From Prorocentrum cordatum (Eukaryota), in NCBI GenBank assembly GCA_963575745.1, contig CAUYUJ010000048.1:124001-188000 (forward strand): a DNA stretch of 64,000 bases, read 5' to 3'. Shown one piece after another: positions 16,801-59,963 of the stretch. The translations under genes were made by a program, and so were the position numbers. The notes under the pieces are model-generated. The model worked only from the letters and a program-made list of their open reading frames with translations. It made no database searches and was not told the DNA's origin. Each line of letters starts with the position of its first letter. Positions within the stretch are counted from its first letter, which is position 1.

Positions 16801-18074
16801 CGCAGGTTGCAGGGCGCGCGATGCCCATCGCGTTAGTTTGAGCTGGCAAGCGGAAGGGCTTTGCAAAAGTCCATTGCGCGGTTGCTGCTTACATTTGTGC
16901 CCTGCGCCCGGCACGAACCGTACGCATCACAACGGATTTGAGTTCGATGGTTACGGAATACAATCGGCGTCACCCCAGCATGCTACTACTATATGTGCGT
17001 CGCCCCTCAAGGGAGACGCGCGCACCGATAAATCTCATTGTATATGCGTCGTGGCGGGCGGTTTGTGGGCACGCCGCTCGGGAAATGACATACTAGACGA
17101 TGGGTATACTATAGCTTCGGGTCGGACGCACGCTTCCAAGGGTAACATATCGTACTAGTACATATGTCTTCGCGAGTCCCATGCAGCGCTGACCCCTCCA
17201 TAGCTCATCTTGCGCAGTGCGCCGTGCCGCGGGCAAGCCGCATGGTCCACGTCGCAACGCGCGACTGGCACGCGAGCCTCAGGGTCATTGCGTGCGAGCG
17301 GCAGTTCCCGGCCCTCGGGTGCGCAGTTGTGAAAAGGTGAAAGAGATCGTTCCAGGGGAAATGGGGACGACGCTGAAAGAGCCCTGGAGTTACATTCCCA
17401 CTACAGGAGTAATATTGAAGAGTGATAAACAAATCTGGCGGCGATTTCGTTTTTGGTTTTCAGTGTGAAGCATTTTTTCCAAAATCCGCCTGGAGGAATA
17501 CATGCCCGACCTGAAGCTACAAAGTCCCTGAGCCCACTTTGCAGCAGGGTTGGACATGCGCCGGCAGGGCCATTGCATACCTGGCAGACTGGACACGCGC
17601 GGCTCCTCTTCGCGCCAGAGACATTTTCGCGATCGGTGGATTCGTATCCACTAAGGCCAGTCCGCGTGAGTTCGTCACTGTCGGTCCTGACGCAGCGGCG
17701 CTCAAGGATATGATTTGCCAGGGGGACGACCTCAACCGAAAAACATTGCACGTGCTGGCCAAGAAGTCGTTCCAGTCGGGATTCGTTGTGACGTTGGCGC
17801 CGCTGCGCGAGAACGACAGTCAAGCTTTACAGTTTGCAGCCTAATACGGCTGCGCCGCGCTGGCACACGATTTGGTAGGTGTTCCCGACCAGTTTGTGGT
17901 GTTGGGTCCTCGTTTTGCAGAGACAGCACCCCGCGTCTCCTTCCTCCCGCTGCGCTCTCCTCCTCCTCCTCCTCCTCCTCCTCCTCCTTCTCCTCCTCCT
18001 CCTCCTCCTCCTCCTCCTCCTCCCATCCGCCTCTCCTCCTCTCCATCCTCCCTTTCCTCCCATCTGTTGCACCA

Positions 18075-18870
18075 CTCACACGTTTCATGGCTCAATTGGG
18101 AGCTCCACCGAAGGCCCCAATGGCAGCAGCGCCCGCATGCAGTTTCACCCTCCATTTTGGCACACCCCTCACAAGCTTCGTGGTCCTACAGGAAGCTCCA
18201 CCGAATGCTCCAATGGCAGCGCCCGCATTCAGCTCCGCCTTCCATTTCGGCACAATCCCTCACACGTTTCAGAGCCCCATCGGCAGCTCCACCGCAGGCC
18301 CAAGTGGCAGCGCCCGCATGCAGTTCCACCCTACATGTCGGCACAACCCTTTACACGTTTCTTGACCCATAGGGAGCTCTGTCGAATGCCCGAATGGCCC
18401 GTATTCAGCTCCACCTTCCATTTCGGCACAATCCCTCACACGTTTCATGGCCCCATGGGGGGAGCTCCACCACAGGCCCAAGTGGCAACGCCAGCATGCA
18501 GTTCCACCCTCCATTTCGGCACAACCCCTCACACGCTTCGTAGCCCCATATGGAGTCCTACCGAAGGCCCCGGCGGCAGCGCCCGCATGCGGTTCCACCC
18601 TTATTTTGGTGCACTTCTCACACATGTCATGGCCCCATACGTGAGGGGACTCCACCGAAGGCTCCAGTGGCAGAGCCCGCATGCGGTTCCACTGCTCATG
18701 TCCGCGAACCCCTCACACGTGCCGTGGCCCCATGGGGAGCTCCATCTAAGACCCCAGTGGCAGCGCCCGCATGGTGGCCCCGCCACATTTCGGCGCACCC
18801 TTCACGCGCTTCGTGGCCCCATACAGAGATCCACCAACGGCGAGACTCACAACCACGGTACCCACAATTG
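18075..18870. repeat. ~90-bp tandem repeat, ~9 diverged copies
   Basis: CACACGTTTC..GGAGCTCCACCGAAGGCCCCAGTGGCAGCGCCCGCATGCAGTTCCACC. Confidence 0.9.
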
Positions 18871-20830: not shown

Positions 20831-23049
20831 CTTCTAAGGGCCTCTGCAGAGGGAGCGTGGAGGGAGAGTGTATTTCAATAGCGTTGATGAGTCTAGGGTT
20901 TACACTGGTCCGCCTCCTCCTCCTCCTCCTCATCCTCCTCCTGTTCCTCTCGTTTTATTTTGGAACCATCTCAGGGACCTCCTAAGTGCCTTTCAGGGTT
21001 CTGCCAGTGCCTTCTCAAGAGCCTCTCAAGAGCCTCTCACGGCCCTCCTGGGGTCCCATGTCGGTACCCTCCCTGGACGTCTGCAGCAACTTGCTGTTGG
21101 TGCGCTTTGTTGGGATCGCAGCATTTTTCCGTGACGTCAGGGGGGGAGCCCAGAGCCCAGACGTCCAGCTTTCCCCCAGCTTGGGCCCCACAGGCTGGTT
21201 CTCCGGGCCCTGCCGCCGTCGAAAGACGACCTGGGATGCGAGACCAGCGCCTTGGGGAAGGTCGAAGGGGCCCCTTCCGCCGCCTTGGGGCCTCGGAGGC
21301 CAGTCTTTAGGCCCCGCCGCCGTCGAAAATCCGACCCAGGACGATGGACCAGCCCCTGGGGAGACGATTGACGCGTCTTCAGGACGCGTCTTATGGTCGG
21401 ACCGGGCTATAAGATCGAGGTCGGTTCGGGGCGGGTGCACTGACGTTCTTCGTGACTGTTGGATGTTCTTGCGCATTCTGGGGGAGGGCACCCTCGAACG
21501 TTTTTCAGTTTGGCCGGCGGAGGGTCTCGCGTTCTTGAAGTATTTTTTTTTGTCTTTGATCCGGCGGTAGCCCAACGTGTGTCTGCCCCACTCGGCTCCA
21601 CCGATGGCACCCAGCGTGTGGGTTGGAGGCCCGAAGTTTTGGAGCCGTCGGAGCACTAGGGTTGAGTCGGGCGTGTCCCTCAACAGGAGGAATATCCAAA
21701 CATTGTCAAAACATATTCCGGATGTCATAAGAAGCGTGGGGGGTGGATCGCGTGGGCCAGTTTTCGATCATTTCTCAGTTTTCGATGTTCGCTTCTTCGG
21801 GACGGTGTCTCAAAAGCAGTCTGGGGGCGATCTCCACCCTTTCTCAAGACTGACTTCTGCATCTTGCTGATGCCTCCTTGGGCATCCTCCAGATACAGCC
21901 TGCCCGTGGAGGGGCATGCCCGACCTGGCACTGGGGCCCTCTGCCGGGCCTCGGCCGGCGGCGGCGGCCGCCCGGGCGGGGCGAGGCTCCGGAGACGAGG
22001 GGCGTCAGTGCACTCAAGAGGGACAAAAAACACACAGACATCATTAATCCTCGATTCCTCAGAAAATATTTGGGAAACTATGGGAAGTGTGGGGGGGAAG
22101 AATGAGAAACCCAGAAGATATGGCAACATATGGGGCATCTCTTTATTTGTGTGCATTTGTTTGTGTGTCCTGGGGCCTCTTCAGGCTCCCGGAGGACGAG
22201 GAGGTGTAGGAGGAGGAGGAGGAGGAGGAGGAGGAGGAGGAGGAGGAGGAGGAGGGGGTCCGTCAGGGCGTGGAGAGCGTGCACCCCACAGCGTGCCGCC
22301 GGCGGGCGCTCTGCGGGGGCTCGCCGCCGGTCTGCCCGCAAGGGTGCATCGACGATTTGCCAGATCGGCGCTTCTTCCCCCCCCCCGCCTGTGGCTGCAC
22401 AGTGTTCCCCCCTCCTCCTCCTCCTCCTCCTCCTCCTCCTCCTCCTCCTCCTCCTCTTCCTCCACCTCCCTCCTCCTCCTCTCTTCCTCCTCCTCCTCCT
22501 CCTCCTCCTCCTCCTCCTCCTCCTCCTCCTCTCTTCCTCCTCCTCCTCCTCCTCCTCCTCCTGTTCCTCCTCCTCTCCTGAGCCGCCCCTCCCCTCTTGC
22601 GCGGGGGTCCGTCAGGTCGGGCGTGTCCCTCTACAGGCGGATTCTGGACGACAAGTAAACAGTACCCAAACATATGCAAACCATATCCGAAGATGATAGA
22701 GAATCGTCCCCACATTATGTTTTGACCGTTTGTGAAAAGTCCCCCTGTAGAGGGACAGGCCCGACTTAAAGCTTGCAGGCCCCTGCAGAGCCTGGGGTGC
22801 ATTGACCCAGGCTTGCGTGCAGGATTCTGCAGGATCTTGCTTTGGCATCGTTCGGGCGCGTGCATTTTTTCTCGACGAGGACGATCGAAGAGAGTCTCGG
22901 CGCATCCTGCGAACAAGTAAGCGCACGACATCGGACAGTGCACCAGGAAGCGGACGTCCCAGCGATGGTGAGCTGCAGGATCCTGCAGATCCCGACCGAC
23001 CCGGGCTTGGATGGGGAATCCGGGGGATGTGCCAGGTGTGTGTGTGTGT

Positions 23050-36512: not shown

Positions 36513-37541
36513 TGACCCCGCCGCGTCCGCTGTGAGCTGCCGGCCTCCAGGGCCTGAGACGGACCTCGGGAGGCCCCTGGCCCGGCGCAGGGCTCGCCGG
36601 CTCGACTGCTCTCAGAGCCCCGAATCATCAGGGGTAACTCGGGTCAGGGCTAACTCGGGTTCGTTTTTCGGGAACCCAAACCCGAGTTACCCCGGACCCG
36701 AGTTACCCCGGATATTTCGGGCGTCCAATGCTCTTGGCTCCTTGGCGCCTGGCCGCTCGGGCGGCCCCCGCGCGGCCCGCAGTGTTCGCGGCGGCGCGCC
36801 GGCGGGTGGGCAGGGAGGGAAGGGGGCTCCTCCTCCTCCTCCTCCTCCTCCTCCTCCTCCTCCTCCTCCTCCTCCTCCTCCTCCTCCTCCTCCTCCTCCT
36901 CCAAGCGGGCGGGGGCCTTCCCAGGAGGGATGGGGCCCTTGGGAGGCCCAACCTTTCCGGCCTTCGAATAGGCGGCGGGGGGGGGATGGTGCCTCGTCGT
37001 CCGCCGTCGCGACGTGGCACGCCACGTCACCACGGAGATCCCCCACTGCGGGAAGCCTCGGCGCCTTTCTCATGGCGCCAACTTCGCAGAACGGATCTCG
37101 TTTGACAAACTGTGGAATGGGCCCGGAGTGTCCTGGAGAATTCCGTTCCGGATTTCGAAGTGAATTTCGTGCGGATTTTGTTTTGGGCCAGGAATGAAGA
37201 TTGAACAACATCCACGCGAAATTCACTTCGTTTTTCGCTCGCCATTTCGGGGCTTTGAATTTACAGAAATCCACGCACAAATCCGCTGCATCGCGTCTGC
37301 AAGGTCGGTGTAGTGACATTTTTTTTCCCCGCTCCGCTTCTCTCGGGCCGGGCGGGCCCGGACCTGAGAGGCTCCGAGAGGCCAGACGCTTCCGAGATCC
37401 GAGAGGATCCCGGTGCTTTCTCTCGCCACGGCGACCAGACTTGAAGATCAGACGGCCGCACCCCTCCCCCTCCCTCGTGCGCGCCGCCAGTGTTCTCTGC
37501 CCCGTTAGGAGGGCGTTGCGCGCGGGGTGCGCAGCGCGAGC

Positions 37542-40500: not shown

Positions 40501-43500
40501 AGGCTGAGGCTGAGGCAGGCTGAGGCTGAGGGCTGAGGCTGAGGCGAGGCGAGGCTGAGGCTGAGGCAGGCTGAGGCTGAGGCAGGCTGAGGCTGAGGCA
40601 GGCTGACTGAGGCTGAGGCTGCAGGCTGAGGCTGAGGCTGAGGCTGAGGCTGAGGCTGAGGGCTGAGGCTGCAGGCTGAGGCTGAGGCTGATGCAGGCTG
40701 AGGGCTGGCTGAGGCAGCTGAGGCTGAGGCTGCTGAGGCTGCTGAGGCTGAGGCTGAGGCTGAGGCTGAGGCTGAGGCTGAGGCTGAGGCTGATGCTGAG
40801 GCTGCTGAGGCTGATGCAGGCTGAGGCTGAGAGGCTGACGCTGAGGAGGCTGAGGCCGAGGCAGGCTGAGGCTGAGGCTGCGGCAAGCCGAGGCAGGCTG
40901 AGGCTGGGGCTGAGGCTGAGGCAGGCTGAGGCTGAGGCTGTGGCTGAGGCTGAGGCAAGCTGCGGCTGAGGCAGGCTGAGGCTGAGGCTGATGCAGGCTG
41001 AGGCTGAGGCAGGCTGAGGCTGAGGTTGAGGCAGGCTGAGGCTGAGGCCGAGGCAGGCGAATCCTTCGGAATCCGTAGGATTCCCTAGGAATCCTTAGGA
41101 ATCCATAGGAATCCCTAGGAATCAGGATTCCTAAGGAAACCCTAGGAATCAGGATTCCTAAGGTTTCCTAAGGATCCCCATGGATTCTTAAGGATGCCTA
41201 AGGATGCCTTAGGAATCCCTAGGAATCCTTAGGATTCCATTGGATCCTAAGGCCGTTGCCACTGCGACTGTCTTTGCGAATGCGACTGCGACTGCGAGAA
41301 CAGCAGAATTCTACAACTGGATTCTCACCTGAATCTTAAGGGGAATGCTTCCAGATATGCTTATACACATCGCTGTTAGGTTGCCTTGCCGTTTTTTATT
41401 TTTATTTTTCCGCCAACATCCGCCTGTAGGGGGACACGCCCGCCCTAGCTCTGCGCTCTGTGCCCTGGCTCGCTGCTCGATGCCTTGACAATCGCAAGGG
41501 GGGCGCACGGCACACGCCGGCCCTCGGCGGAGTTCGGGGGCCGGGGGCGCTCGGTGCCCGGGCAGCCGCGCCGCCAGTTGCAGCGTCGTCGGTCTGGAGT
41601 TAAGGCGGGCATGTCCCTGTACAGGAGGAGTAGTTATTCGGAGCATAACCGATGCTGGTCATCCGATTGGCATGTGGCCACTGTGCATAGGCACGCGTGT
41701 TCGGTTGACGGTGAAGATGCCGGCGGAGGATAAGATCGTGCAGGACGCCACCGGGACATTCCGGGGCGTGAAGTTCCACCTCAACGAGTTCCCAACGCAG
41801 GATGCTAGATCGGATTGGCGCCGAAGTAACGATCACGAAGCCCGCAGGCGCGGATATTATGGATGTAACTCGTTGCCACGTTGTGTCCTCGCCAAGTATG
41901 ACGGCTTGGACATCGATTCTGGGGATTTGTTGGAGTATGTCTGACGGTTTGGTTATTTTGAACATGTTGCATTATTCCGTCAAGAATCCGCCTGTAGGAG
42001 AACATGCCCGACCCAAGCTTGGACTCCCGCCCAAAAGGAACCGATCACCCGGCATCTTGGGAGGCGATCTCCGCCTAATGCCTTCGGGGCTCCCTGTGGC
42101 CCGAGTGGATCTGTATCCGTCTACCCGCTGGGGTAATTGCTGCGAGATCGGGCCCCCAGGCCCCAGGCGGTAGACCGGCTCAGGGCACCCCACGCTTCGG
42201 CGCGACGTGCGATTAGGATCCCTGAGGAATTTCTGGAGATCTGCGCGAGATCCCTGGGATTCTGAAGGAATTTCTAGGGACCTGGGCGAGATCCCTGGGA
42301 TTCTTAAGGAATTTCTAGGGATCCTTCTAAGGGTCTGGGCGAGATCCCTGGGATCCCTGAGGAATTTCGGGGGATCTGAGCGAGATCCCTAGGATCCCTG
42401 AGGAATTTCTAGGGATCTGCGCGAGATCTTCCGGATTCCTGAAGAATCTGTAGAGGAATCTCTGAGCGAGCTCCCTGGCCACGCCCCAGATCCCAGGCGT
42501 CAGTGCCCCGAGCCTGCCCCGGCCCTCCCGCCCCGCGCAGCGGAGCGACGCGCGATCCGCTCTCCGGCAGACGTGTGCAGGCTCGGGCCTCGCAGTTCTT
42601 ATGGTCGGGAGCCCTGGCCCAGCGCGTCGCGCCGCCTGCTCTGGCCCACCACGCCTTCGCCGCGACGGGCTGACCACTTCCCAAGTGCCGAGCGCCCACG
42701 TCCCGAGCCTTGTCCGAGCTCCCCGCCCAGAGGAGCGGAGCGACACGCTGTCCGCTCGGTGGCGCGTCGCTGGGGCCGCCGCCGCGACACGCTGGGCGAA
42801 AGTTACGTTTCTGACTGTCGTATTCTTGTCCTGGACTCCTTAGGTCTTGGATAGGAAACGTTCGGAGCCCGAGCCGCTCGTCGTCGGGCCGGCGGCCGCG
42901 GCGACAGGCGGCGACCACGGCGCACTGGTCCAGCTCGAGGAGTCGCTGGCAAAGAGCATCATGATGCTGCCGCTCGCCACCAGGCCAACCGCCTGCGCAG
43001 TCTGGCAGCGTGCTAGAAGCTGGAGGGATAAGACGCGACACCACAACCTCAGAGGATGAAACGGTATTGAAATCGACCCTTGCCTCGTCTTCATCGTTTT
43101 GGACCGCTTGGGACGCCCTCGTCCCCATGGCTGGATTCGCATCGAAATTCTTATCAGAACGCACCCCAGGAGAAGTCTGGGGAGTAGCGGTATCGGCATC
43201 TTTCGGTTTTACCTCAACCTCCAGCGTGCAATGGTCCCGCTAGATCCACCGCCCTGCTTGTGCATATGATGCTGTTTTCTTTCTCTGTGATGGATGCCAG
43301 CCTCTCTGTCCTGATTTGATGCTCATCGATGTCGGCGGGCCAGTGGGAGTGCGATGCCGATCGCTCGAAGGTGATACACAGGGCTGTTTATCGGTTGGCC
43401 AGCTCGCTGCCCTGCGTCCCATGATAGCACACCAGAAGTCCTGCGCCGCTGTGGCGCAGGCAAGGCTTGAGCCAGAATCGTTGAGAATGGGACCGTTCTG

Positions 43501-43935: not shown

Positions 43936-45429
43936 GGTCGGAGCTGCCTCGAGCGATGGGGCCGGAAAAAGGGGGGTCCACACCACCAGGAGGGCCCTGC
44001 CTGGCTTGTGGTGCTGGTGGTGGTGGTTAGTGGAATGGTCACTACCCACCAAACCACCCCAACCCAACCCGAAGGCCTCAAGTAGCCCTCCGTTTCCAGT
44101 GGGGGGGTGGCGGGGAACATTGAAAAAACACATGGAACCCATACCCCCACCCAGCCCGAAATGAGGGTCAAATTCGGGTCTTCGTGTTGGGTTGGGGTTG
44201 TCTGGTAGGCACTCAAATGGGGGGGGACGTCCCCTGTTACACGTCATTAAACCAGGTCTCACGAAACCAAGTGCTTCCAACGCCCGACAAGACACGGCAT
44301 GCACACAATTTCTCGGAGGTCCGCGCGGATTTCTTCACGGGACCCGCGGGCGACGGGCAGGCTGCCGGGCCATCTTCTGGACGAGTAGGAAGCGACGTTG
44401 CCAGCACCTTCCAGTAATCATTTGGCGTCGCCAAAGCACACGTCGGTCTGTCAGCATCGCGGCCATGATGACCCATTCACTTTGGCTCCCCATTCGAACT
44501 TGCTTATGACAGAGAAGAGATACAGGCGCCGCGGAAACAGCAGCGGGAACACAATGATTTCGTCATGTGGACGCGACGGCAACGACAACAGTGCCGAGTA
44601 TGCAAATTAGACTGCCGAAGCCCACGTTGACTGAGCAGAAGGTATAGTAGAACGGGTGGTCTTCGTAGAAGACCGCGCCATCCGGGGGCCGCAACACCAC
44701 CTCCGCCACCGCTCTACCTAGTCGCCCTCGCCCTCCTCACCCTCCTCTGTCTCCCCCTAGCTTGTCGCCCGTCCCTTGCGCCTCAACCTGTTTCCCTGTC
44801 GCCCTCGCCCTCCTCACCCTCCTCTGCCTCGCCCTAGCGTGTCGCCCGTCCCTTGCACCTCAACCTGCCTCCTCGTCGCCCTTGCCCCCCTCGCCAAGAA
44901 GGGGTCTGGAGGCTGGGTCTGAACGTATTTGTGGCGACGCTTCTTGGGGTCACCCGTGGGCGGAGGAGGGGCAGGGGGAGGGAGGAGGGGGTGGTGGTCT
45001 GAGGGATCGACAAGCGGCAAGGGGAACAGAGGGGGGGGGGGTGAAAGGGGGATGGGGCGACAGGGAGGGGGAGACGGGGAGCGGGGAAAGGAGGGGGGGA
45101 AGGGGGGCGAAAGGGAGGGGGAGACTCGCCCGACGCGGCCTCCTCGCCCGCTCGGCGGCCGCGGCGTCCAGAGCCGTGGCGACCCGGGCGTGCAGGCTGC
45201 CGCTGCTGGCCAGGTGGAGCCCCGCGGCCATCGCGGCGGAAGGCCCGCCGGCCCTCGCCGCGCCCGAGCCCCGGAGGGGCGGCAACGAGAGGGGATGGGG
45301 CCAGGAGGAGGAGGAGGAGGAGGAGGAGGAGGAGGAGGAGAGAGGAGGAGGGAGGAGGAGGAGGAGGAGGAGGGAGGAGGAGGAGGAGGGAGGAGGAGGA
45401 GGAGGAGGAGGACGAAGGGGAAGAAGAGG

Positions 45430-45482
45430 TCCGTGGCCACTTTTGGCTCGAGCCGTTCTGGCTCAAGCCAGTTAGGCTCAGG
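45430..45482 (+). other. Three tandem relict dinoflagellate spliced-leader sequences
   Basis: TCCGTGGCCACTTTTGGCTCGAG + CCGTTCTGGCTCAAG + CCAGTTAGGCTCAGG, compared with DinoSL DCCGTAGCCATTTTGGCTCAAG: one near-full copy followed by two 15-nt 3' portions. Confidence 0.8.
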
Positions 45483-45587
45483 GCTCGCTCGAGCGATTGA
45501 GGCGTGCTGTTCTGAACCCCCTGAGACTTACCGGCCTGGAGTTCGGGACTCCACCCGCTGACGAATCTCGATCCCCAGTCAGGCGCC

Positions 45588-46985
45588 ATGTTCCAGCATG
45601 GCTCTAAGAAGCATGGATACCAGATCACCGGAGTTACGTGCACCCTCTGTGGTTGCAAAAAGAATCCTCCTTGATATGCTACTTGCTACCACTGTCATGC
45701 CGATCTTCGCTTGTTCGGGATTGAAAACTCCGTCCCACAAGACATCCCCCCACCACCCTCCGAGGGCTGGGGCAAGGGGGGAGTCTCAGGGTTCGGTAAG
45801 ACCTCTAAGGGCGGGCCGAAAGGAACCCTTTCAGGAGGCAAAGGAGGTCAAGGAAGAAGAGGAGGACGTAAAGGCCCAGGTGATCTTGCAGGCGGCCTCC
45901 CTTCAGTGCCAGGTTTCGGCAAGGGCGGCAAATCCAACAACTACTACCACTACCAGACCTACGGCTACGGCAAGAAGCACGGCATGGGCTGGGGAGGGTG
46001 GGCAGGTCAGCAGTATTTCGAAGATCGTAACACCCGCAAGCACCACCATACCTGTGCCAGTCTGTTCCACGAGCTACTCCAGAAGGCCAAATCCAAGTAC
46101 AGCGACGTGGACCCGGAGCTGGTCCCTCAGATGGAGGCCCTCTACGGGGCCCTCAAAGGATCCGAAGATGCACAGATACCTCTCTCCTAAGTCTTCCAAA
46201 AGCAGGAAAAGAAGCTTAGGAATAGGGGAACTCAATTGGAGGGCGTCTGGGAGCAGATCCATTACTGTGACGAAGCTATTGCAGGCATTCAGAGGCAAAA
46301 GGAGCACCTCGAAGGAAATGCCCAGGAACTTGAGCAGGAAATCGCAGACCTACAGGAGGGGGCATCAGGAACACCACTGGCCAGGAGTGGAGCCCAGGCT
46401 CCTGATTCGACTGCTCAGAGGTCGCGAAAGATGAATTATACCAAAGGTGGCACGAAGACATGGCCCAGGCAGAACCTCCAAAGCAACCCAATGCGGGTTT
46501 CGCTATGCCTGTGGATGAAGACGGGGCGGAACCCAAAGGAGAGTGGTACGACAGGGACCTGGAAGATTTCACCCCAGTCAAGAACAAAACCAAGGCAGGC
46601 AAAGACAAGGGAGGACGAGGAAAAGGCAAATCGGCGTCCCAACCGAATGCCAAGCGCCCTTCGGAGTTGGACCTGGGGAGCCTCATCGCCAAACTCCAGG
46701 AAAGTCCTTCGTTTCGGAGCGTCATGGGGGACCAGGAGGAGCAGGTTTGGGAGGCTTTCCAGGACGTCCGGGGGTATGGGAAGATGCTCAAAAGGACATG
46801 GAGCTGCAGGCTACGAAAAGGAAGGGACTCGAAAGGGGCCGCCAGACGCAACCAAAGCAGCGGTCACAGCAGCAGCAGCGGCAGATTCAGCAGCCAACGG
46901 AAGCAGCGCAGCAGGAGCAGCAGCCAACGCAGGTGCAGCACTTGCAGGATCAGAGGCTTCTGTTCCCGGAGCTGCAAAGTAATAA
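45588..46985 (+). pseudogene. LINE ORF1-like region with RanBP2-like C4 zinc finger, Gly/Lys-rich tract and coiled-coil
   Basis: MFQHGSKKHGYQITGVTCTLCGCKKNPP*YATCYHCHAD (CxxC..CxxC, with an in-frame TGA), then GKGG repeats and a coiled-coil (AIAGIQRQKEHLEGNAQELEQEIADLQE). Disrupted by stops and frameshifts. Confidence 0.6.
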
Positions 46986-46989
46986 GACA

Positions 46990-47779
46990 ATGCGAGGCTT
47001 CACCATTGCCACGGCCAACGTCAACAGCTGGGGGGCGGGGGCCGACATCATCGATGCAGCGAAAGCAGATGTTATCCTGGTGCAGGAGCACAGGCTGCAA
47101 ACCAAGAAATACTTAGCTGCAGTCAGTGCATGGTGCGCCTGGCCTCAAGGAGCCCAAAGGGGGCGCATCAAGTGGAGTCTTCATATTTGTCAAGGGCCAC
47201 CTTGACTCGTTTACGGGAGTTTGCAAAGAAGTTCTTGTTCCAGGGCGGCTATGCAGATGTTTTCTCAGGTTACGGGGGCATGGGGGCATTGCAATTTTCA
47301 GCGTGTACTTGCACACAGGCAAAGGGCTGAACCCTGCCAACTTGAGCATTATCCGCGCCACGGGGGAGGACATGTTGAACCATGGGTACCAGAGCATAGC
47401 AGGAGGAGGTTGGAACATAAAAGCAGACATTTTCACAGAGCATGTCGAGCTTGATGTGTTGAACTCGGTTGTAAAATGCCCGTTAGAGCCCGCGTGTTGC
47501 ATTCCAACCAGAAAATCGCATGTCGTTTACTTTGCTAACGCATCCCTTATGGCGAACGCCATGGATTCAGTTTGCATTCAAGACGACATAGAGCTGTCCC
47601 CCCACAGAGTAGTCCAATTAAGGTTCAAAAGGGGCTTGGAGACCATCCTGGTGGAAGCACCCGGTCTCTATCGGAAGATTCGCAGCTCCCCGGCCATCGG
47701 GCCCAGACAACGGCCACCAGACTACGGGGGCCTGATTCAGGACTTGACGGCTTGCCTGCAAGATAGGAAAGATAGCTAA
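46990..47779 (+). pseudogene. LINE apurinic-type endonuclease (EEP) domain
   Basis: MRGFTIATANVNSW..ADVILVQEHRL; after a frameshift, SSGVFIFVK, SVYLHTG, IAGGGWN (degenerate GDxN) and SPHRVV (SDH-like). Confidence 0.85.
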
Positions 47780-48579
47780 GGAGCAGTCTGGAGTGCCGCA
47801 GGGGGCAGCGAAGACCATGTTAAGGGAATCGCGCTTTCTGACAACATTTATGGTAGGTGGCTCCCGCTTGTCCGGCAAGAGCTCTACTTGGCTACCCAGA
47901 CGAGCCCGAGAGTCCCAGGCAAGGAGATTGGCACGGCGATGGCTACGTCTTTCATGCCACTCGCGCAGCTCCTCAAATGCAAGTACTACCCCCAGAAGTT
48001 CCAGAAAGGGCCATGTTGTGGGTAGTGCATAGGTTCCGGGAGCTTGCATCGCGCTACGATGGGGGCAAGGGCTATAGCAAGCCAGCGGGTCAGTTGCGCC
48101 AGCAGCGGCATCGTTTTAGGAGTATGTCCAAAAGGGGTGGGCCATTCAGGGCCCGCTGGAAGGCAGGAGGCGACCTCTTCCATGACTACGTTGCTGACGT
48201 AGCCCAGACGCTCATCACCAGTTGTTTCATGGATGGGAGGTTGCCTGTTACGCATGCATTGCAAGCGTTGAAGCATGTCTGCATGGGTTACAAGGTAAGG
48301 AGAATAATGATGAAAGGGGGCGTGGCACGCATGGGTAGACAAGGCATGCGAAGGGCCATGCTCGGACATCTACCGACATCTTAAAGGAAAAAACTGCTGG
48401 GAGGCGGAAGAGGTATGGTCTGAAGAAGGCTTCTCCACCTCGCTGCCTACCTGCAGCACCAACTGTCAGCCTGGGGGGACAAGTGGGCAGCGACAGATGA
48501 CCCCGACCCTGTCCCGGACGACGCGGCGAGCTATCCACCATTCCCTGTCCCAGAGCTCAGCGACGCCAGCGACCTTCAG

Positions 48580-50700
48580 CGCGTCGCCAAGAAATTCAAG
48601 GGTTTCACGTGCCGGCTCGATGGCTTCCACCCCAGACACTTCAGCATGACCAGTGAAGAGCGCATGGGGGCAGCAGCGCTCATAACCGCATGCCGATGAT
48701 AATAAAGGGACCCCCCCCCCCCTCAGTGTTTAGAGTTGATTATCGTCGCCCTATACAAAATTCAAATTGGGCGGCGAGCGCCGAGGCCGAACTTCATTAT
48801 CACCTCGAAACGCTATGTTGAGATAGCAACATCAAACGATGTTGCTATCCCCGCGCGCGCCTGAACTTTTCTATCTCTGGGGTTGATTATCCATGGAAAG
48901 GGGGGCACATGAGCTACCCTACATGAGCACTTAAAAAAATCATTTTTAATGAAGCGCTTGTGAATTAAAATTGATAGATATGGAACTTTCCATTTTTTCC
49001 GTTCTTCTTCTCATATTCTTCTTATCTTCTTCTTCTCTTCTTATGATTCTTCTATTTTGCTCTTCTTCTTTTATATTACTATATGTCCTCACGCTCGCCT
49101 GAACTGTTTTATCCCTGGGCTTGATTATCCATGGAAAATGAAGCACATGAGCTACCCTACACGAGCACTTTACAACATCAATGTTCATAAAGCGCTTGTA
49201 AATTAAAATTGATAGATTTGGAACTTTCCATTTTTCCGTTCTTCGTCCTCTTCTTATTATCCTCTTCTTCTTCTTTCTTATTTTTCTTCTACTGTATTCT
49301 TCTTCTTTTAATTTTTCTCTCTGTCCCCGCGCTCACCTGAACTTTTTTATCTCTGGGGTTGATTATCCATGGAAATTGAGGCGCATGAGCTACCCTACAC
49401 GAGCACTTGCAAAAAACAATTTTCATAAAGCGCTTGTAAATAAAATCTAATAGATTTGAAACTCGAGATTTTTTCTTCTCTTCGTCCTTCTCCTCCTCCT
49501 ATCGTTTCTTTTTATGTTATTCTTCATTCTTTTTTTATTTTTCTTTCTTATATATAGCTTCCTCCATTCCAGCGAGATAAGCCATTGTGGAGGATACTTC
49601 TGTGAAAACTAAACGCCAAGGATGTCTCAAAACGTGCTCGGCTTGGTCTCCTCTTGATCATCTCTCACTTCGAGATTATGCTGAGGTCTGCTGGGCTACT
49701 TTTATTATCTCTCCCTGAACCCCGAACTTTATTATCCCCTAGTGTTTATTCTCACGGGCATGAGGTTAGTTCAGCTCATGGAAGTCACTTGTTCGACGCC
49801 GCGGGTCACGCAAAGCGTGGACATGCCATTGGCACGGATGCGCAAAGGCCCTGGGAGACGGTGCACTGCCTTCTTCCCAGGGCTATTGAGTGTGAAAAGG
49901 GGAAGTTGTGGGCAGAGAGTGCAAGCAGTGGGAGGCAGAGTACGGCATGGGGCCCCAGTTCTCAGCGACGCAGAAAAGGTTTCCCGAGGACACCGCATGG
50001 CGACAGGCCATGCGAAGCGCGAGTTAGTGGCTGGAAAAAAGGCGACCATTGTCTCAAGTTGTTGTGGGATTTGGAGTCGTATTATGAGACTATTGATCGC
50101 AGTCTCATGGGCAAGCAGTTGGATTACACGAAGTACCCAGCCCACATATTGACGCTGAACATACACATACAGGCGGCCGCGCAGGTTGCTGCAATATGGA
50201 AGCGAGTCCAAAGCCAAGTACCCGCAGAGAGGGATTACGGCAGGGGGCTCTAGTGTCACGTACGAGGCGAAAGCTTCTCAAACCTGGTCTAGAGCAGCCT
50301 GCAGATATTGTAGACGATACTGGTAGCATAGCGCACATAGATGACTTAACCTTGGTCTCTGGGGGCCGGAGCCTGAACTACGTCATCGGCCAGATGAGCA
50401 CCTTCGCGGCGATCCTACACCAGGCGGTAGGCAAGCTGCACCTCTCTCTGGCCGCCCCCAAGCTTTGCATGGTGGCCAGTTCTTCTAAGGTTCTTACTTT
50501 GGCAGTAAAGCGCCCGGGGAAACTTGGAGGGGAAGCGGGGATAGATGGCACTCGAGGGAAGCACCAGCGACGCCCCAGGGCCCGCCATATGCGGAGAAAG
50601 CGATGGTTGAAAGTGCGTTCCAGGCGCGCAAGAAGGCGCGCGACCTCCCGGGGAACGAAGCCAAGCAGCTGAAGAGCAGGTTCTTTGCAGTGGGGGCCAA
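48580..50700 (+). pseudogene. LINE reverse transcriptase domain, interrupted by an insertion
   Basis: DGFHPRHF (48618); GRRCTAFFP; LLWDLESYYETIDR (50059); RGITAG (50227); SIAHIDDLTL (YxDD-equivalent at 50334-50345); LSLAAPK. Confidence 0.8.
48697..49737. mobile_element. AT-rich insertion with a ~238-bp tandem array inside the LINE RT
   Basis: Sharp GC drop. Unit CCTGAAC..GATTATCCATGGAAA..CATGAGCTACCCTAC at ~48860, ~49098 and ~49336. Ends GATAATAAAG / CTTTATTATC are inverted. Confidence 0.6.
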
Positions 50701-51624
50701 GTCCGTCCTTGCACACGGTGCTTACAGTCAAGGGTTTACACCTAAAGAAATTGACAAAGTCCGTGCACTTGGAGGCTCCGCTTCCAGTAGCAGGGTGAAA
50801 GCAGCCAAGTTAGATTTATGATGGCGCACTGTCAAGGACGAGGATCCGATCGCATGGTCGGTGTCAGGTCTTGAACGATGCGCCATGGAATGGTGGAGCA
50901 GCAGCTCGACCAGGAAGGAGCTACAGACTCATGCCGGCGCCCTGTCGGTCAAGGAGCTACGGGATGCGTCCGAGCATGCAGTCCACGATTTAACAGCAGT
51001 AAGAAAACATGGCACGGTAAAGTGCGAGGTCCAATGACTTTTCCATTTTTGTGGGTAGACCATGTTGGCTGGAAGTTTAGGGCAGCAACGAAGCTGGAAG
51101 ATAGAGAAGCCAGGGTGTGGAATTTATCAGAGACAGCGCCGACAAGGATTAGCACAGAGTTCCACGGGCAGTTCAAAGACAGCTTGGTCCAGAGCTATGC
51201 TGAGAAAAAGCGATCTGCTGACGCTGATGTTGCAATCTCTGGCTGGTGGTGGGATCTGTTTCAGAGGCAGCTCCCTCTAGCAGGGCTGAGCTTCAGGGGG
51301 CAGCAGCTGGTCCGGAAGGTATTCTGCGACGCTCTGGTCACAGGTGAGAAGCTTAAAGAATGGGGGTATTCAGGCAATAGAAATTGCCCATATTGCGGCT
51401 GCCCTAATACGTGCTTTCATCGAATGTGGGAGCGCCCGCATGGGCAAAGTATACGTTCGGAAGTCTTTGGGCACATCTTGGCAGAGGCAATCGCACACCC
51501 CACCCATCCGCTACTCTCCAGGCTGTGGGCTGCGAAACTTGAGATCCCCAGGCCAGCGCAGGACTGGGGCATCGAAATGCTAGATCGGCATGGGCCGTGC
51601 CGGGGAAAAACGTGTGACCCCGAC

Positions 51625-52150
51625 ATCCCTGTTTTTGTTGACGGGTTCATCATAGACCCATCGCACCTCGAAATCAGCAGGGGGGCTTGGCAGCGGTTCA
51701 GTTGAATGCCGCAGGCGAGCTTTTGGCAGTAAGATCCCCTCTGCCTGCTGACTTTCCTCAGACCCCTGCCCATAGCGAAAATGCAGGGCTTGCCATAGCC
51801 CATGTCCATTCGACATTTCCTAGGTCAGCACCTTTTGCGGTGGATTGCGCAGCCCTTCTTAAAGGTGCCCGCTCCCCAGGCGCCGCACTAGCAGGCTACT
51901 GCTTCTTTGGAGAGTTCTGGCGAAATATTGGGCTCCACCTTCTGCCTGACCAGTGGGCGCAGCTGCGGAAGACCAAGGCGCACATCGATAGGACCAACGT
52001 CGAGGACAGTGAGTTAGGCGAATGGTTGGGCAAAAAGGCAGCGGATTGGCATGCTGGCGAGGCTGCCCGAAAGCATGCCTTACCCAGGCCAGATGCGGAG
52101 GCCCATATGGAGGCTGTCCAGGCCTACGCTGCCTTGCTCAACGGGGTTGG
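51625..52150 (+). pseudogene. RNase H-like domain of the LINE
   Basis: VFVDG..AAVQL..QTPAHSENAGL..AVDC..KTKAH..GKKAADWHAGEAA matches the RNase H D..E..D..KxxAH..GNxxAD pattern. Frameshift near 51690. Confidence 0.7.
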
Positions 52151-53723
52151 TCGGATCCTAAGGGAGTGGCCCAGGGCCACGGACACGTGGCCCGAAGCGC
52201 AGCCCCGGCCCCCCAGGGGCAGAGACCGCCCATTTTCAACCTGCCACACACCCATCTGGGCAGGGTCAGGGTTTCGCTGTTCCACTTGCTTAAAAAGGAT
52301 CAGCCCAGGCACCCGGCAAGGGTGCCAACAGGTAGCGACTCATATCCAAGAAGCCGTAGATAACGAACCAAGGCTCCACCATGCCCTCATGGTGGGGTGG
52401 GCCGACAAGTCAAAATTGCCTATAGTTTTCTGCAATCTGTGCGGGGGGGGGGGTCCTGCGCAGTGAAACGGCTGAAGTTGCTGAAGCTTTGTCTCAACAC
52501 CGTCTCGTCTGAGATGCGGAAACTCAGACGGGGCAGGGTACCAGGCACATCTGATTATTTTTCGAATCCAGCGCCAATTGAACATTTTCGCGCAACGAAT
52601 GCGAGAGCCGAAATTCGTGACATTTTCGTTGCGTCAACATGGGTACACGAGGCAGGTAACAGACACCTGCTACACCACGCATTCCTCCTCCCTTCTCTTG
52701 TCCCTGTCAGCGCAGCTGTATTTCCAGCAGCTGGGAACTCCAGCAGCTGAGGATAGGATAATATGGGGCGGGGGTGGGTGGGTAGGTGGGGTATTTCTGG
52801 GGTCGCATGCTCAAAATGTTACTTAAGACCAGACTTTCCTGCTGTGCTATTCGCTACACAACAGCAGAGGGGCAGATATGCTGCACTCTGCACAGATCTG
52901 GCATTTTGGGTGCATCGGTTCATCCGTGAAAACGGAACCGCTGCACACACACACACACACACCCGGACAGCACGCGACGGGCAGGGTTGTCCAACGTGGC
53001 CGAGGGCACCGGATACTTTGTGCACGCGCTCAGAGTTCTCCTCCACGGGAGACGCCTCCCCACTTCAATATTAACTCTGCTCTTCCCCCTCTTCCTTCCT
53101 CTCCGATCCTTTGCATGAGTTGCTGTGCACCAGCGCAGCAAGGCCATCAAGGGTAGGGGGAAGGTCTGGGGGGCAGATGGTGGGCAAGGGATGGGGCTCT
53201 CTGGAGCAGACATGCGACGAGTAAGTTCGTCCGTGCCGCCTTCGACCCCTTGCCGACTGGCGATGATTGGGCTCTCGTTGTGCTTTTTACGACTTGCGTA
53301 TTTTCTATCACCGAGTATCACCGAGTATGAGGAGGAGGAGGAGGAGGAGGAGGAGGAGGAGGAGGAGGAGGAACAGGAGGAGGAGGAGGAGGAGGAGGGG
53401 AGGAGGAGGAGGAGGGGGAAGGAGGAGGAAGAGGAGGAGGAGGAGGAGGAGCCCTTAGCGGGCCCTGGAAACGACGGGGCCGTTTTTGTTACCGGTTCCG
53501 TCTTGCCGCTTCTTTGCTGCCGGTTACGATGTCCTGTTTTTGTCTGCTCCGTCATTGTTTTTGTTTAATGTTTCCGATTCTGGCTCTGGTTACGGTCACC
53601 GGAGCCGTTCTGTTGCCGTTTCCAGTCGCCGTTTTTGCTGTCGTTTCCGTGTTTTGTTTTGGGTGGGGGAGATTGTGGAAAAGCGGTTTTGTTGTTTCCG
53701 GGACCCATTAGGGGCCAGGATAG

Positions 53724-53912: not shown

Positions 53913-53959
53913 GATAGGGGAGGGAATTCATCTCCTGCTGATCGCCCATCGGGGCATCG

Positions 53960-54107
53960 TTGCCCACACCGCCCAGGAACGTCCGGATTCGCCGACGGGG
54001 GCCTCTCGCCGATCTATCGGCGATGCATGACGGTTGCCCACACCGCCCAGGAACGTCCGGATTCGCCGACGGGGGCCTCTCGCCGATCTATCGGCGATGC
54101 ATGACGG
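53960..54107. repeat. Near-perfect 74-bp tandem duplication
   Basis: TTGCCC(C)ACACCGCCCAGGAACGTCCGGATTCGCCGACGGGGGCCTCTCGCCGATCTATCGGCGATGCATGACGG twice. Confidence 0.9.
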
Positions 54108-56742
54108 ATTCAAGCTCCAAGTTTCCCCACCCCTGGGCTGGTCCCCCCTTTCGTCCCCCCTCGTCGGAGGGGGGGACGGGGGGCAGGAGGAGGAGGAGGA
54201 GGAGGAGGAGGAGGAGGAGGAGGAGGAGGAGGAGGAGGAGGAGAAGGAGGATGGGGAGGAGGGGGAGGAGGAGGCCGACGGCGCCGACGTTCGCCCGCAG
54301 CGCCAGCTGCCCAGCGTCCCCGGGCGCCTGCCCGGAGGAGGGCGTCCCCCTGGATCGGCCTCCTCCTCCTCCTCCTCCCCCTCCTCCTCAGCAGCAGCAG
54401 CAGCAGCAGTAGCATCAGCGTCAGCGTCAGCAGCAGGGGGACGGGGGGCAGCCCAGACCTCGGCGGCCCTCCGTGGGGCCTCCCGCGGAGGCGCCCAGTC
54501 GCCGCGGCGGGGCCCGCGTCGGCAAAAACGCGTCGGGGCGGAGCTCGGGAGGGGGTCCCGGGGACAGGTGTTGCGCTGCGTCGGGCGTGCCTTTCTGCAG
54601 GAGGCAGACACATGTCAGGAGGGAAAGAAACACACAGACACAATTAATCGTCGATTCCCCAGAACATATGGGAGAATATGGGAAGTGGGGGGAAGACAAA
54701 AACCAGAAAATATGCGAAAATATTGGGAATTATTTTATTTGTGTGTATTTATTTGTGTGTCCTTGGGCCCCGTCAACATGGTTCATTTCTAATTCTTCGA
54801 GAGTTCTTTTATTTTTAAGGGGGCCAGGATCCTCTCCTTTCTAACTGTGCTAGCCTGGGCCTCTTCCTGGCCACTAGGGGGTCGGAACAGTTAGAAACGA
54901 GCACAATTGGAAATGAGCACGATGAGAAAGGAGCGACGTGTATTCTAACATTGTCGATGAATAGTCTGGGGACGATCTTTTCAGATATTTTCGAGCATCG
55001 GTGATTACTTTCTGGCTATTTTCATTGTTCTTCGAAACCCGCCTGCAGGAGGACATGCCCGACCCAAATGTTCCGTAGACGCGCCCACGGTGTTTTAGCT
55101 AATGGCGAAGTAGGACAACCAATTGTAGGACGGCGTACTTCGTGGTCAAACCAATTGTAGGAGCGCGTGGTTCGTGTTTTCCTACAACTCGCTTTGCCGT
55201 TTTCGTTCGATAAATTCGCATATTCGGAATGTGGGAAAAGGTGTTCCGTGATTCCTACATGTTGTTTTGCGTGAGTTCGGTGTCACAAAAAAAAACATGA
55301 TTCCCAACCGCACCGTTAACCAACAACCCCGTCAGCGTTGCCTTGGATGCTGCGAAGGTTTGGACCAGAAGGGCGAGCCACGGTTGCCTCAGTCGGCCCT
55401 CAGAGGGTCGAGCCAGGGGCTTCCCAACCGAGGCGATCCTCGATGGTCGATCGTTCCTGGACCCTCGGCACGCGATCGTCGACCGTCGGTCGTTCCTCGA
55501 ACCCTCGATCCTCGATCGTTCCGTTAGGTCGGGCATGTCCTCTACAGGTGGCGCTTGGACGAAAAGTCCCAAAAGGTCAAACCATACTCCAGCACAGTAA
55601 AGAAGCATCGTCCCCAGGATCTTCTTCCTGCAGAGGGACAGGCCCGACTTGGTCGTTCCTCCCAAAGCCCTCGGCCCTCGCTCGTGACGGCACCCTGCGC
55701 ACATGGCGGCCGTCTGCCGACGCAGACGCGCCCAGCGCGCCAGCGGCGGGCACAGCGCGGCACTGCACGCCTGCCTTCTCTGGTGCAGGAGGAGGAGGAG
55801 GAGGAGGAGGAGGAGGAGGAGGAGGAGCACTGCACTGCTTGCGTCGGTGGCCTCGAAGTCGAGCGGCCAGCGATGGCCTCCTCCTCGGGGGCGCCCTCCC
55901 GGGGAGAGCCGACCTTTCTGCCACCCTTCCTTCTGCGCCTATTGCCTGCTGCCTTCGGCCTCGCGCCAGGCAGTTCGGTCATTCCTTTATGATTATCCGT
56001 GCTTCTCGGCTTTGTCTTTCCTCGTCCCACCCCTTCCATCCTCCACCGACGCGCATGCTACCTAAGTCGCTCATCCGTGTCAGAGGACTTCGCCACCGCC
56101 TAGGATCCTGAATCTTGGCATGAGCTGTCGCTGCGCTCGCACCATCGGGCCGAGCACAGTCGTGTCAAACGCTCAAAAGAGCTATCCTGATGCAGGGCGG
56201 CCCGTTTTCAACGAGTGATTCTCGTTTTATCGCCCGCACGTTCGCACGTTCGTTTTCGAAATTAGTTGCCTTTGCGCTAGGCAGGTGGAGGGCGAGTTGT
56301 CTTCAACATGAGTTTCTAGCCGAAGCGCTCGCACGTTCTTTAGTAAGCGGCCCGCATTTGCACAGGTGGGGGGCGGTTCGTTGTCAGCATGTGGTTCTCG
56401 CAGCAGTGCCGCGCTCATTCTGAAAACGCTAGAAGGGATTTACAATGGCGAGGTGTTCTCTGTTCTCAAACCTCTAACTCTCCCCGTGGTTCCGTGCATA
56501 TTCGCCTCAAAAGGCTTCCACCAGCTGTACAGATCAAGTTGATTTTCTTGTTCAGACGTGCTTATCGCTTCAGCGTCCTGCACAGTTCTTGTTACAACAT
56601 GCAGCGGCTGCACGGTTGAAGACGAGGGGTTACGTGTGTGATCTAACCTTTGTATGTTCATGCATTGAGGTTTCCATCACATCAAGCTTGGATTGCCCAA
56701 CAGCTGCAGCGACGGAAAGAGATGCCTTTCTGCCAATGGCGC

Positions 56743-59020: not shown

Positions 59021-59963
59021 TCTGGTGTCATCCCCTTTCCCTTCCTCCTCTTCCTCCGCCTCTTCCCCCCCCCTTCCTTCTCCCGTCATCCCCTTTTCCG
59101 TTCCTTCTTGCTCCGTCCTTTCTCCGTCCCCTTCCCTCCCTCCTGCTGCCGCGGCCCTGGCACCAGGCCCGTCCTGGGTCTAAAAGCAGTGCCCACAGGG
59201 GCCAGTGGCCCCGAGCCCGCGGGGTGTGTGCACATCGGGAGGGTTTCTCTGAGCACCCAGCTGGGGGGGCGACTGGAGGGTTTCTCCGAGGGGCTTAGGC
59301 GACCCGTCCTCCTCCTCTCTCCTCCTCCTCCTCCTCCTCCTCCTCCGCCTCCTCCGCCTCCGCCTCCTCCTCCTCCTCCTCCACCTCCTCCTATCTCTCC
59401 TCCATCTCCTCCTCCTCCTCCTCCTCCTCCTCCTCCTCCTCCTCCTCCTCCTCCCCCTGCTCCACCTCCTCCTCCTCCCCCTCCCCCTCCTCCATCTCCT
59501 CCAACTCCTCCTCCTCCTCCTCCTCCTCCTCCTCCTCCTCCTCCTCTTCCTCCTCCTCCTCCTCCCCCTCCATCCTCTCGGTTCGCCTACGGCCCAAGGG
59601 GAAATCGTGCAGCGGGGGGGCGGCAGCCCTTTGGTGCATACAGGCGGGGGGCGCAGGCCCCTGGGGTCCGAGGCGCTCAGGCCAGGCCGGCAGCCCGGCG
59701 GCGCTGCAGGGCAAGCTTCACTTGCACGGCGCAGCTGACCACTTCCCAGACCCCCTCGAGTCACGAAAAATCACGACGGGAGTTTTCTCCCTATTTTCGG
59801 CCTCTGAGGGCCCCTGCTGGGCCTCGGGACCGTCAAAAAACGACTCAGGATGAAGAGCCGGTCCCGGGGAAGGGGTCCAGACCTTTGGGGGTCGACGTCA
59901 TGAAAAAATCATTACGTCAGGGGTCTGGGCCCTTTGTAGGCTCTGACCAGCTCGCCAGGCTTA

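Follow-up and report, generated by a model that had tools for sequence, protein, structure and literature searches.

A 64,000-nt stretch of the Prorocentrum cordatum genome (contig CAUYUJ010000048.1, positions 124,001 to 188,000; hereafter the window, with coordinates counted from its first nucleotide) carries at 45430-53322 a long interspersed nuclear element (LINE) of the apurinic/apyrimidinic endonuclease (APE)-reverse transcriptase (RT)-zinc finger-RNase H type, colinear with full-length relatives. Its 5' end, at 45430-45482, is a contiguous stack of one near-full dinoflagellate spliced leader (DinoSL, 23 nt) and two 15-nt leader relics, set in 15-nt register. The leader motifs are real and lie far beyond chance, and the simplest reading of their arrangement is that the lineage would have passed through at least three rounds of trans-splicing and full-length retrotransposition. 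Relic leaders are already known for host genes; a LINE as the carrier of leader relics is what is added here.

The leader stack at the 5' end of the element

Excerpts of PMC7245778, PMC12014239, PMC3942190, and PMC6050394 describe how host cDNAs are recycled: the leader encoded in a retrocopy offers its internal AG to the next trans-splicing event, and a 15-nt relic of the old leader is left behind. The stack was scored against the DinoSL, DCCGTAGCCATTTTGGCTCAAG, and the 15-nt relic, CCATTTTGGCTCAAG, both as printed in excerpts of the literature. Unit 1, the near-full DinoSL at 45430-45452 (plus strand; TCCGTGGCCACTTTTGGCTCGAG), forms the 5' boundary of the element and differs from the DinoSL 21-mer by two substitutions and a 1-nt insertion (edit distance 3); one of the substitutions changes its internal AG acceptor to GG. 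It is followed on the same strand by relic leader 1, or unit 2, at 45453-45467 (CCGTTCTGGCTCAAG), with 2 mismatches in 15 positions, and by relic leader 2, or unit 3, at 45468-45482 (CCAGTTAGGCTCAGG), with 3 mismatches in 15 positions, presumably the oldest of the units. Decay of the whole stack amounts to 8 changes in 52 positions, about 15%. No derived change is common to the three units, which speaks against a recent origin by DNA slippage from one unit.

The stack starts without a gap after a (GGA)n microsatellite, the probable target site, which extends from approximately 45289 to 45429 (Tandem Repeats Finder [TRF] reports 45303-45412, period 3). Downstream, 105 nt separate the stack from the first ATG, at 45588; from its position between the two, this interval (45483-45587, plus strand) is assigned as the 5' untranslated region (UTR).

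The expectation by chance was determined with 1,000 dinucleotide-preserving shuffles of the window. Single matches to the relic 15-mer, with at most 3 mismatches, numbered 8 in the window, compared with a mean of 2.1 per shuffle; four of the eight come from a tandem repeat at 18152-18525 that is unrelated to the leader. In-register pairs were found in 0 of 1,000 shuffles, as were in-register triples, and the summed mismatch of three in-register units, which is 8 for the stack, was 16 in the best of the 1,000. An ungapped search of the window with the DinoSL 21-mer (at most 3 mismatches) gave no match, solely because unit 1 carries the 1-nt insertion. The first-pass annotation of this DNA had described three leader-like motifs right after a GGA tract and about 105 nt before the ATG at 45588, had read their 15-nt registers as a relic pattern, and had proposed a comparison with shuffled sequence. 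The motifs are confirmed by the sequence and the shuffles, units 2 and 3 match the relic form described for recycled cDNAs, and equally good triples are absent from the shuffled windows.

Weaker resemblances to the relic occur elsewhere in the window. The source of the four weak matches is a tandem repeat of ∼90 to 180 bp at 18100-18600, which contains CCATTTCGGCACAA. One isolated 15-mer on the minus strand, at 43466-43480, resembles the relic (CGATTCTGGCTCAAG, 2 mismatches) and may be preceded by a decayed unit; no recognizable open reading frame (ORF), LINE homology, or clear second unit was found behind it.

The LINE body

An ORF1-like frame, broken, occupies 45588-46397 (plus strand) and encodes an N-terminal C-x2-C...C-x2-C motif, a Gly-rich stretch, and a coiled-coil-like stretch. 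The ATG at 45588, named in the first-pass annotation as the start of ORF1, is present at the expected distance of 105 nt, but the frame that it opens is interrupted by a TGA after 28 codons (45672-45674) and by a TAA at 46188-46190. A word-based protein search, with stops read through as X, found no homologue of ORF1, and a profile search gave weak Prefoldin-like matches (E = 0.014).

The APE domain follows at 47005-47953 (plus strand), as located by phmmer and by tblastn to relatives, and contains a frameshift near 47127 and a stop codon at 47777-47779. A phmmer search with its stop-free piece, 47117-47776, identified 264 proteins at E ≤ 1e-3, 21 of them at E ≤ 1e-10; a word-based search with the APE piece against longer proteins gave no match. 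Pfam Exo_endo_phos was found in 9 of the 18 phmmer relatives scanned, and the long relatives (1,546 to 1,841 aa) bear Exo_endo_phos, RVT_1, zf-RVT, and RNase_H. When mapped back by tblastn, the relatives are colinear with the window over 47005-52445, switching among all three frames.

The remaining domains were located in the same way, all on the plus strand. The linker and the N-terminal part of the RT lie at 47995-48684 (tblastn to P0087, P0041, and P0006), and the rest of the RT, with several frameshifts, lies at 49821-50670, where short tblastn pieces to P0041, P0087, and P0107 fall in three frames. The RVT_1-bearing P0087, P0041, and P0107 align as colinear tblastn pieces on 47995-48693 and 49923-50272. 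The C-terminal region of the RT, at 50965-51690, has a zf-RVT-like Cys/His motif (tblastn to P0121, P0088, P0041, P0087, and P0107) and a weak Pfam zf-RVT match (E = 0.022). RNase H, a Cys-rich C-terminal domain, and the stop codon complete the coding region at 51657-52466 (tblastn to P0004, P0121, and P0032). Alignments in the RNase H region (51657-52445) cover residues 1297 to 1556 of P0004 (E = 6e-14), 1229 to 1394 of P0121, and 1221 to 1385 of P0032, and Pfam places RNase_H at the corresponding residues of P0121, P0087, P0107, and P0072.

Eight full-length relatives gave the family consensus motifs DGxHPRHF, LWDLxxxYE, and FVDD. The window motif DGFHPRHF agrees with the first of these, and LWDLESYYE, recognized by eye in the window translation, corresponds to the second. 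The YxDD-type box is HIDD in the window copy, compared with FVDD in the consensus, and the endonuclease box is GGGWN, whereas the family has GGDWN (alignment A1). Pfam gave nothing significant on the window ORFs themselves, including no direct Exo_endo_phos or RVT_1 match, and domain identity was therefore assigned via the relatives. The APE-RT-RNase H element that the first-pass annotation had placed behind the stack is thus supported by the phmmer relatives, by Pfam on those relatives, and by colinear tblastn matches; a predicted endonuclease, an RT downstream of it, and an RNase H after the RT characterize the element as a LINE.

The 3' UTR, 52467-53322 (plus strand), ends in ...CACCGAGTATCACCGAGTATG; its boundary was placed at the start of an (AGG)n microsatellite, 53323-53451 (TRF). 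There is no poly(A) at the 3' end of the element. Both flanks are microsatellites of the (GGA)n type, inside which a target-site duplication is not definable, and flanking by like microsatellite fits the expectation for a full-length cDNA inserted into (GGA)n. Tracts of (GGA)n/(TCC)n are frequent in the window, at 1150-1730, 3064-3337, 15734-15862, 17937-18061, 22406-22604, 36824-36902, 53323-53451, 54166-54274, 55787-55827, and 59303-59582; none of the other tracts in the window adjoins sequence like this LINE.

Decay and copy number

The window copy is an old, dead, 5'-complete LINE. It is dead because of the stops in ORF1, the stop codon at 47777-47779, the frameshifts, an insertion of 1,136 bp in the RT, and the changed catalytic box. 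The insertion, at 48685-49820, is an AT-rich, high-copy repeat that is not part of the LINE, as delineated by TRF and by contigs of run X1, a DNA sequencing run that matches the window (share, 0.22); no RNA run was among the matches listed, which carries no information on expression. The insertion comprises about 2.6 tandem units of 238 bp (TRF), and its depth in run X1 is about 900 to 2,200, compared with 1 to 10 over the LINE body. One run X1 contig links 48684 straight to 49821, and the reading frame is restored once 48685-49820 is taken out.

Contigs of run X1 differ from the LINE body by 0 to 14% (5 to 14% between copies), and one of them is without the 1,136-bp insertion; other copies of the LINE therefore probably exist, and the family is probably multicopy. 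No second copy was found in the 64-kb window by blastn, or by tblastn with pieces of the window or with 35 long relatives. The relatives gave 56 tblastn matches in the window, 0 of them outside the element, and the window's own pieces gave one weak APE-like match, at 21373-21621 (E = 0.006). In a 329-nt contig of run X3, the last 40 nt match 45441-45480 with 3 differences, and the first 289 nt lie off the window; 5 of these 40 window positions depart from a canonical stack, as counted by eye. The contig may be the head of a sister copy with common decay, the 40-nt match being a hint only.

Leader-headed and related loci in other assemblies

When contigs of prokaryote genomes were scanned for the leader first, 19 loci were recovered, one of which, L133, has a LINE. 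The L133 contig, which is GC rich (GC, 0.70), belongs by its record to a bacterial metagenome-assembled genome (MAG). It presents, in order, an (AG)n tract, an exact 21-nt DinoSL at 117-137, ORF1 (123-1343), and an open ORF2 of more than 2,260 aa. Its ORF1 contains a RanBP2-type zinc finger (E = 1.6e-7), to which the Cys motif of the window ORF1 aligns weakly (E = 0.4), and its ORF2 contains Exo_endo_phos (E = 5e-9) and RVT_1 (E = 4.5e-11). Pairwise BLASTP detected no similarity between L133 and the window endonuclease (E = 0.18); L133 matches the same set of relatives as the window LINE, for example, P0072 at E = 6.5e-22. We conclude that L133 is an independent, intact, leader-headed LINE.

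A protein-guided scan of metagenome contigs with alignment A3 identified one locus, L120, an intact, single-ORF distant relative behind a (GGT)n tract, with an endonuclease 25% identical to that of the window. Scans of metagenome contigs with P0003, of viral contigs with the RNase H piece, A3, P0041, and P0004, and of genome contigs with A3 gave no locus. From the window copy, L133, and L120 only, we infer a preference for microsatellite targets.

Other loci with leaders were of several kinds. Five of them, L126, L127, L132, L138, and L139, have the leader followed by GTAC... intron sequence and are leader genes. Four GC-rich contigs catalogued under bacterial MAGs have an exact DinoSL immediately after a microsatellite: L121 (1-59, (GT)n), L124 (1-52, (CAT)n), L135 (1-55, (GACA)n), and L133 (1-137, (AG)n); the first three are microsatellite-leader junctions without a LINE. 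It seems that leader-capped cDNAs land in simple repeats, or that assemblies break there.

The leader-first scan of viral contigs gave 119 loci with 136 distinct leader sites, nearly all of giant-virus type and AT-rich, and 0 of the 119 has a LINE. In these IMG/VR loci (L001-L119; e.g., L011-L013, L051-L057, and L024), the exact 21-nt DinoSL is DNA encoded many times per contig; the copies stand directly after a conserved AT-rich motif and 30 to 80 nt before an ATG, in AT-rich, giant-virus-type MAG contigs, as if the viral genes of these contigs carried the host leader in DNA. One IMG/VR locus, L067 (5,319 nt), has a DinoSL at the contig start and encodes viral RdRP_1 (E = 4.9e-7) in an ORF of 788 aa, which agrees with the dinoflagellate RNA virus that excerpts of PMC9651163 discuss as a carrier of the leader.

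Proposed mechanism and alternative explanations

We consider it fairly probable that the RNA of this LINE was leader-capped by trans-splicing and reverse-transcribed over its full length, that this was repeated at least three times, and that the DNA-encoded leader served as the acceptor. The LINE RNA template would be handled like a host mRNA: the DinoSL would be trans-spliced on, the capped RNA would be reverse-transcribed whole, and the cDNA would be inserted into a (GGA)n microsatellite. At the following round, the internal AG of the DNA-encoded leader (CCGTAG/CC) would serve as the trans-splice acceptor; the new leader would land 7 nt inside the old one, leaving a 15-nt relic, and two or more further rounds would give one leader and two relics. 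The DNA-encoded leader would act as a portable acceptor at the head of the element, where read-through transcripts could be re-capped without loss of element sequence. Re-capping would cost only 7 nt, replaced by the new leader, and the lineage may need no precise promoter of its own.

Because the stack holds one full leader and two relics, it would record at least three leader additions, each fixed by full-length reverse transcription. The count is a minimum, as the stack would be reset by any splicing event that used the terminal AG of a unit. The first-pass annotation had already proposed, from the sequence, three or more rounds of transcription, trans-splicing, and reverse transcription, and these stand as the simplest reading of one leader and two relics. 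Its further proposals, that the LINE could lack an internal promoter, depend on read-through from host transcription, and have its 5' end remade by the host in every cycle, are hypothetical.

Several observations weigh against this mechanism. The evidence comes from one copy and its own 5' junction. Leader decay (8 of 52 positions) is not clearly below that of the body, so that the last jump is not necessarily the source of the newest leader, and a relic per cycle would give long stacks, so that three units suggest few cycles or other acceptors. The nearest protein fragments, P0003 (86% identity) and P0002 (37%), are filed in EukProt as Pyramimonas sp. CCMP1952, a green-alga name at odds with dinoflagellate leader relics; in this analysis, the DNA was classed as dinoflagellate type because of the leader itself. 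A lack of leader motifs in other full-length copies had been named in the first-pass annotation as a refuting observation, and on this point two other LINEs give a divided answer: the unrelated L133 has an exact leader, whereas the distant relative L120 has no significant leader in its upstream 330 nt (edit distance 7, matched by 140 of 500 shuffles). L120 is the only related metagenome locus with its 5' region present; L133, because it was found through the leader search itself, shows existence and not frequency.

The main alternative, which we hold to be less likely, is that the stack is an inherited fossil. A few ancient rounds of trans-splicing and retrotransposition would have built it; it would now be plain 5' UTR, with transcription from an internal promoter beginning close to or at the first base, as is the case for other LINEs, and without renewal. 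The units are decayed as much as or more than the body (8 of 52 positions versus 5 to 14% between copies), the stack is only three units long, and the run X3 contig, with 3 differences where 5 are expected of a canonical stack over 45441-45480, hints at common derived changes; in addition, excerpts of PMC1874656 describe trypanosomatid LINEs that use an internal promoter and stay unspliced. However, the stack itself needs at least three successive rounds of trans-splicing and retrotransposition, so the process ran repeatedly, the exact, undecayed leader on the intact L133 points to recent capping, and the 40-nt match to the run X3 contig is too short to carry weight. The window copy alone cannot decide between renewal and an inherited fossil, because the decay of the units is not below the divergence between copies.

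A chimera is improbable. The stack and the 105-nt UTR would then be the head of a host retrogene, with the LINE inserted behind it; alternatively, the RT would have jumped, as cDNA synthesis ended, to a host mRNA capped with the leader. Mammalian L1 is known to switch templates in this way at the 5' ends of its cDNAs, and no ORF1-region homologue was found that would tie ORF1 to the LINE body. Against this, a single strand runs from the ATG at 45588 through the ORF1-like sequence into the APE with no composition break or visible junction; run X1 contigs over 45451-46418 have depths like those of the LINE body, a microsatellite lies at both ends of the whole unit, and the intact L133 has the same layout, from leader to zinc-finger ORF1 to APE-RT.

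That the stack arose by chance or by slippage of a simple repeat, or that it is left over from an array of spliced-leader RNA genes, is highly improbable: a microsatellite does adjoin the stack, and other weak 15-mer matches lie in the tandem repeat at 18152-18525, but no shuffle of 1,000 produced an in-register pair, the units have no derived change in common, real leader genes run on into a GTAC... intron that follows none of the units, and units 2 and 3 are without the first 7 nt, which is the exact relic form.

Comparison with known elements

SLACS, CZAR, and CRE are site-specific LINEs that insert in leader RNA genes, and the R1 and R4 groups include microsatellite-targeting LINEs. Insertion in a leader RNA gene, of the SLACS/CZAR type, was considered for the window LINE and rejected: its units are followed by the next relic or by the UTR, and its flanks are (GGA)n. 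Whereas SLACS, CZAR, and CRE insert in leader genes, the window LINE has the leader at its own 5' end.

DinoSL-relic retrogenes, which Slamovits and Keeling are said by citing papers to have described in 2008 as the "recycling of processed cDNAs," resemble the window LINE in having a full leader and then tandem 15-nt relics at the 5' end of the DNA copy, a stack taken to record repeated trans-splicing at the internal AG and reverse transcription. The two differ in cargo: according to excerpts of the literature on these retrogenes, host genes are carried and retrotransposons enter only as possible suppliers of RT, whereas in the window the cargo is the retrotransposon itself.

SymbioLINE and other Symbiodinium LINEs, as presented in excerpts of PMC5890265, have the same endonuclease-RT-RNase H order as the window LINE, are likewise without a poly(A) tail, and have conserved UTRs. 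The term "spliced leader" has 0 occurrences in that paper, in contrast to the leader at the head of the window LINE. By description, the elements are also set apart by ORF1, which in SymbioLINE-Dnmt is a DNA methyltransferase and in the window has a Cys motif and a coiled-coil-like stretch.

The LINEs L1Tc, ingi, and RIME of trypanosomatids (PMC1874656, in excerpts) live, like the window LINE, in hosts whose mRNAs receive a trans-spliced leader. Their solution is the opposite one: transcription begins at +1 from the internal promoter Pr77 and yields unspliced transcripts, whereas the window LINE carries a leader. In the same excerpts, the authors regard unspliced transcripts as a way to keep LINE RNA full length. 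The dinoRNAV of Symbiodiniaceae (PMC9651163) is, like the window LINE, a selfish element with the host DinoSL at its 5' end, which excerpts of that source discuss as mimicry of host mRNA. It differs in being an RNA virus or an endogenous viral element, and the same excerpts report no relic stack near the viral genes. A search of full-text articles found no description of a leader-headed LINE in the article texts; entries with an RT could still stand in supplementary tables that list gene models tagged with the DinoSL.

Other features of the window

Of 48 long ORFs in the window, 0 gave a Pfam family at E ≤ 0.001, and no host gene was recognizable. Upstream of the element, at 44721-44892, there is a 77-bp tandem repeat (2.2 copies) with a run X1 depth of about 130; just downstream, at 53959-54107, lies a perfect 74-bp tandem duplication (2.0 copies, 100% match). 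A dispersed repeat of ∼160 bp, the size of a short interspersed nuclear element or a miniature inverted-repeat transposable element, is found at 54611-54776, with copies near 2135, 5029, 22014, 23466, 27045, and 38070 that are 79 to 89% identical.

Implications

Leader relics upstream of an ORF are no proof of a host retrogene, a point that bears on annotation. The window copy is dead, and the added value of this instance is accordingly modest. In dinoflagellates, relic leaders are generally accepted as the sign that an mRNA has been recycled. As to the RT behind this recycling, a review, in excerpts, favors Ty1/copia, and excerpts of a preprint separate retroposition from retrotransposition. 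A LINE with a three-deep relic stack in a microsatellite suggests that LINE RNA passes through the same cycle as recycled mRNAs, and target-primed insertion of the LINE type would thereby become a concrete candidate for the machinery that recycles mRNAs. If true, this is the reverse of the trypanosome solution, in which, according to excerpts of PMC1874656, LINEs avoid trans-splicing to stay full length. We put forward more tentatively, as possible rather than probable, that dinoflagellate LINEs as a class may replicate from leader-bearing, host-capped RNA, the leader rebuilding the 5' end in each generation with no need for a promoter of the element; the same microsatellite-seeking machinery may paste leader-tagged host mRNAs into the genome, which would make LINEs the source of thousands of DinoSL-tagged retrogenes.

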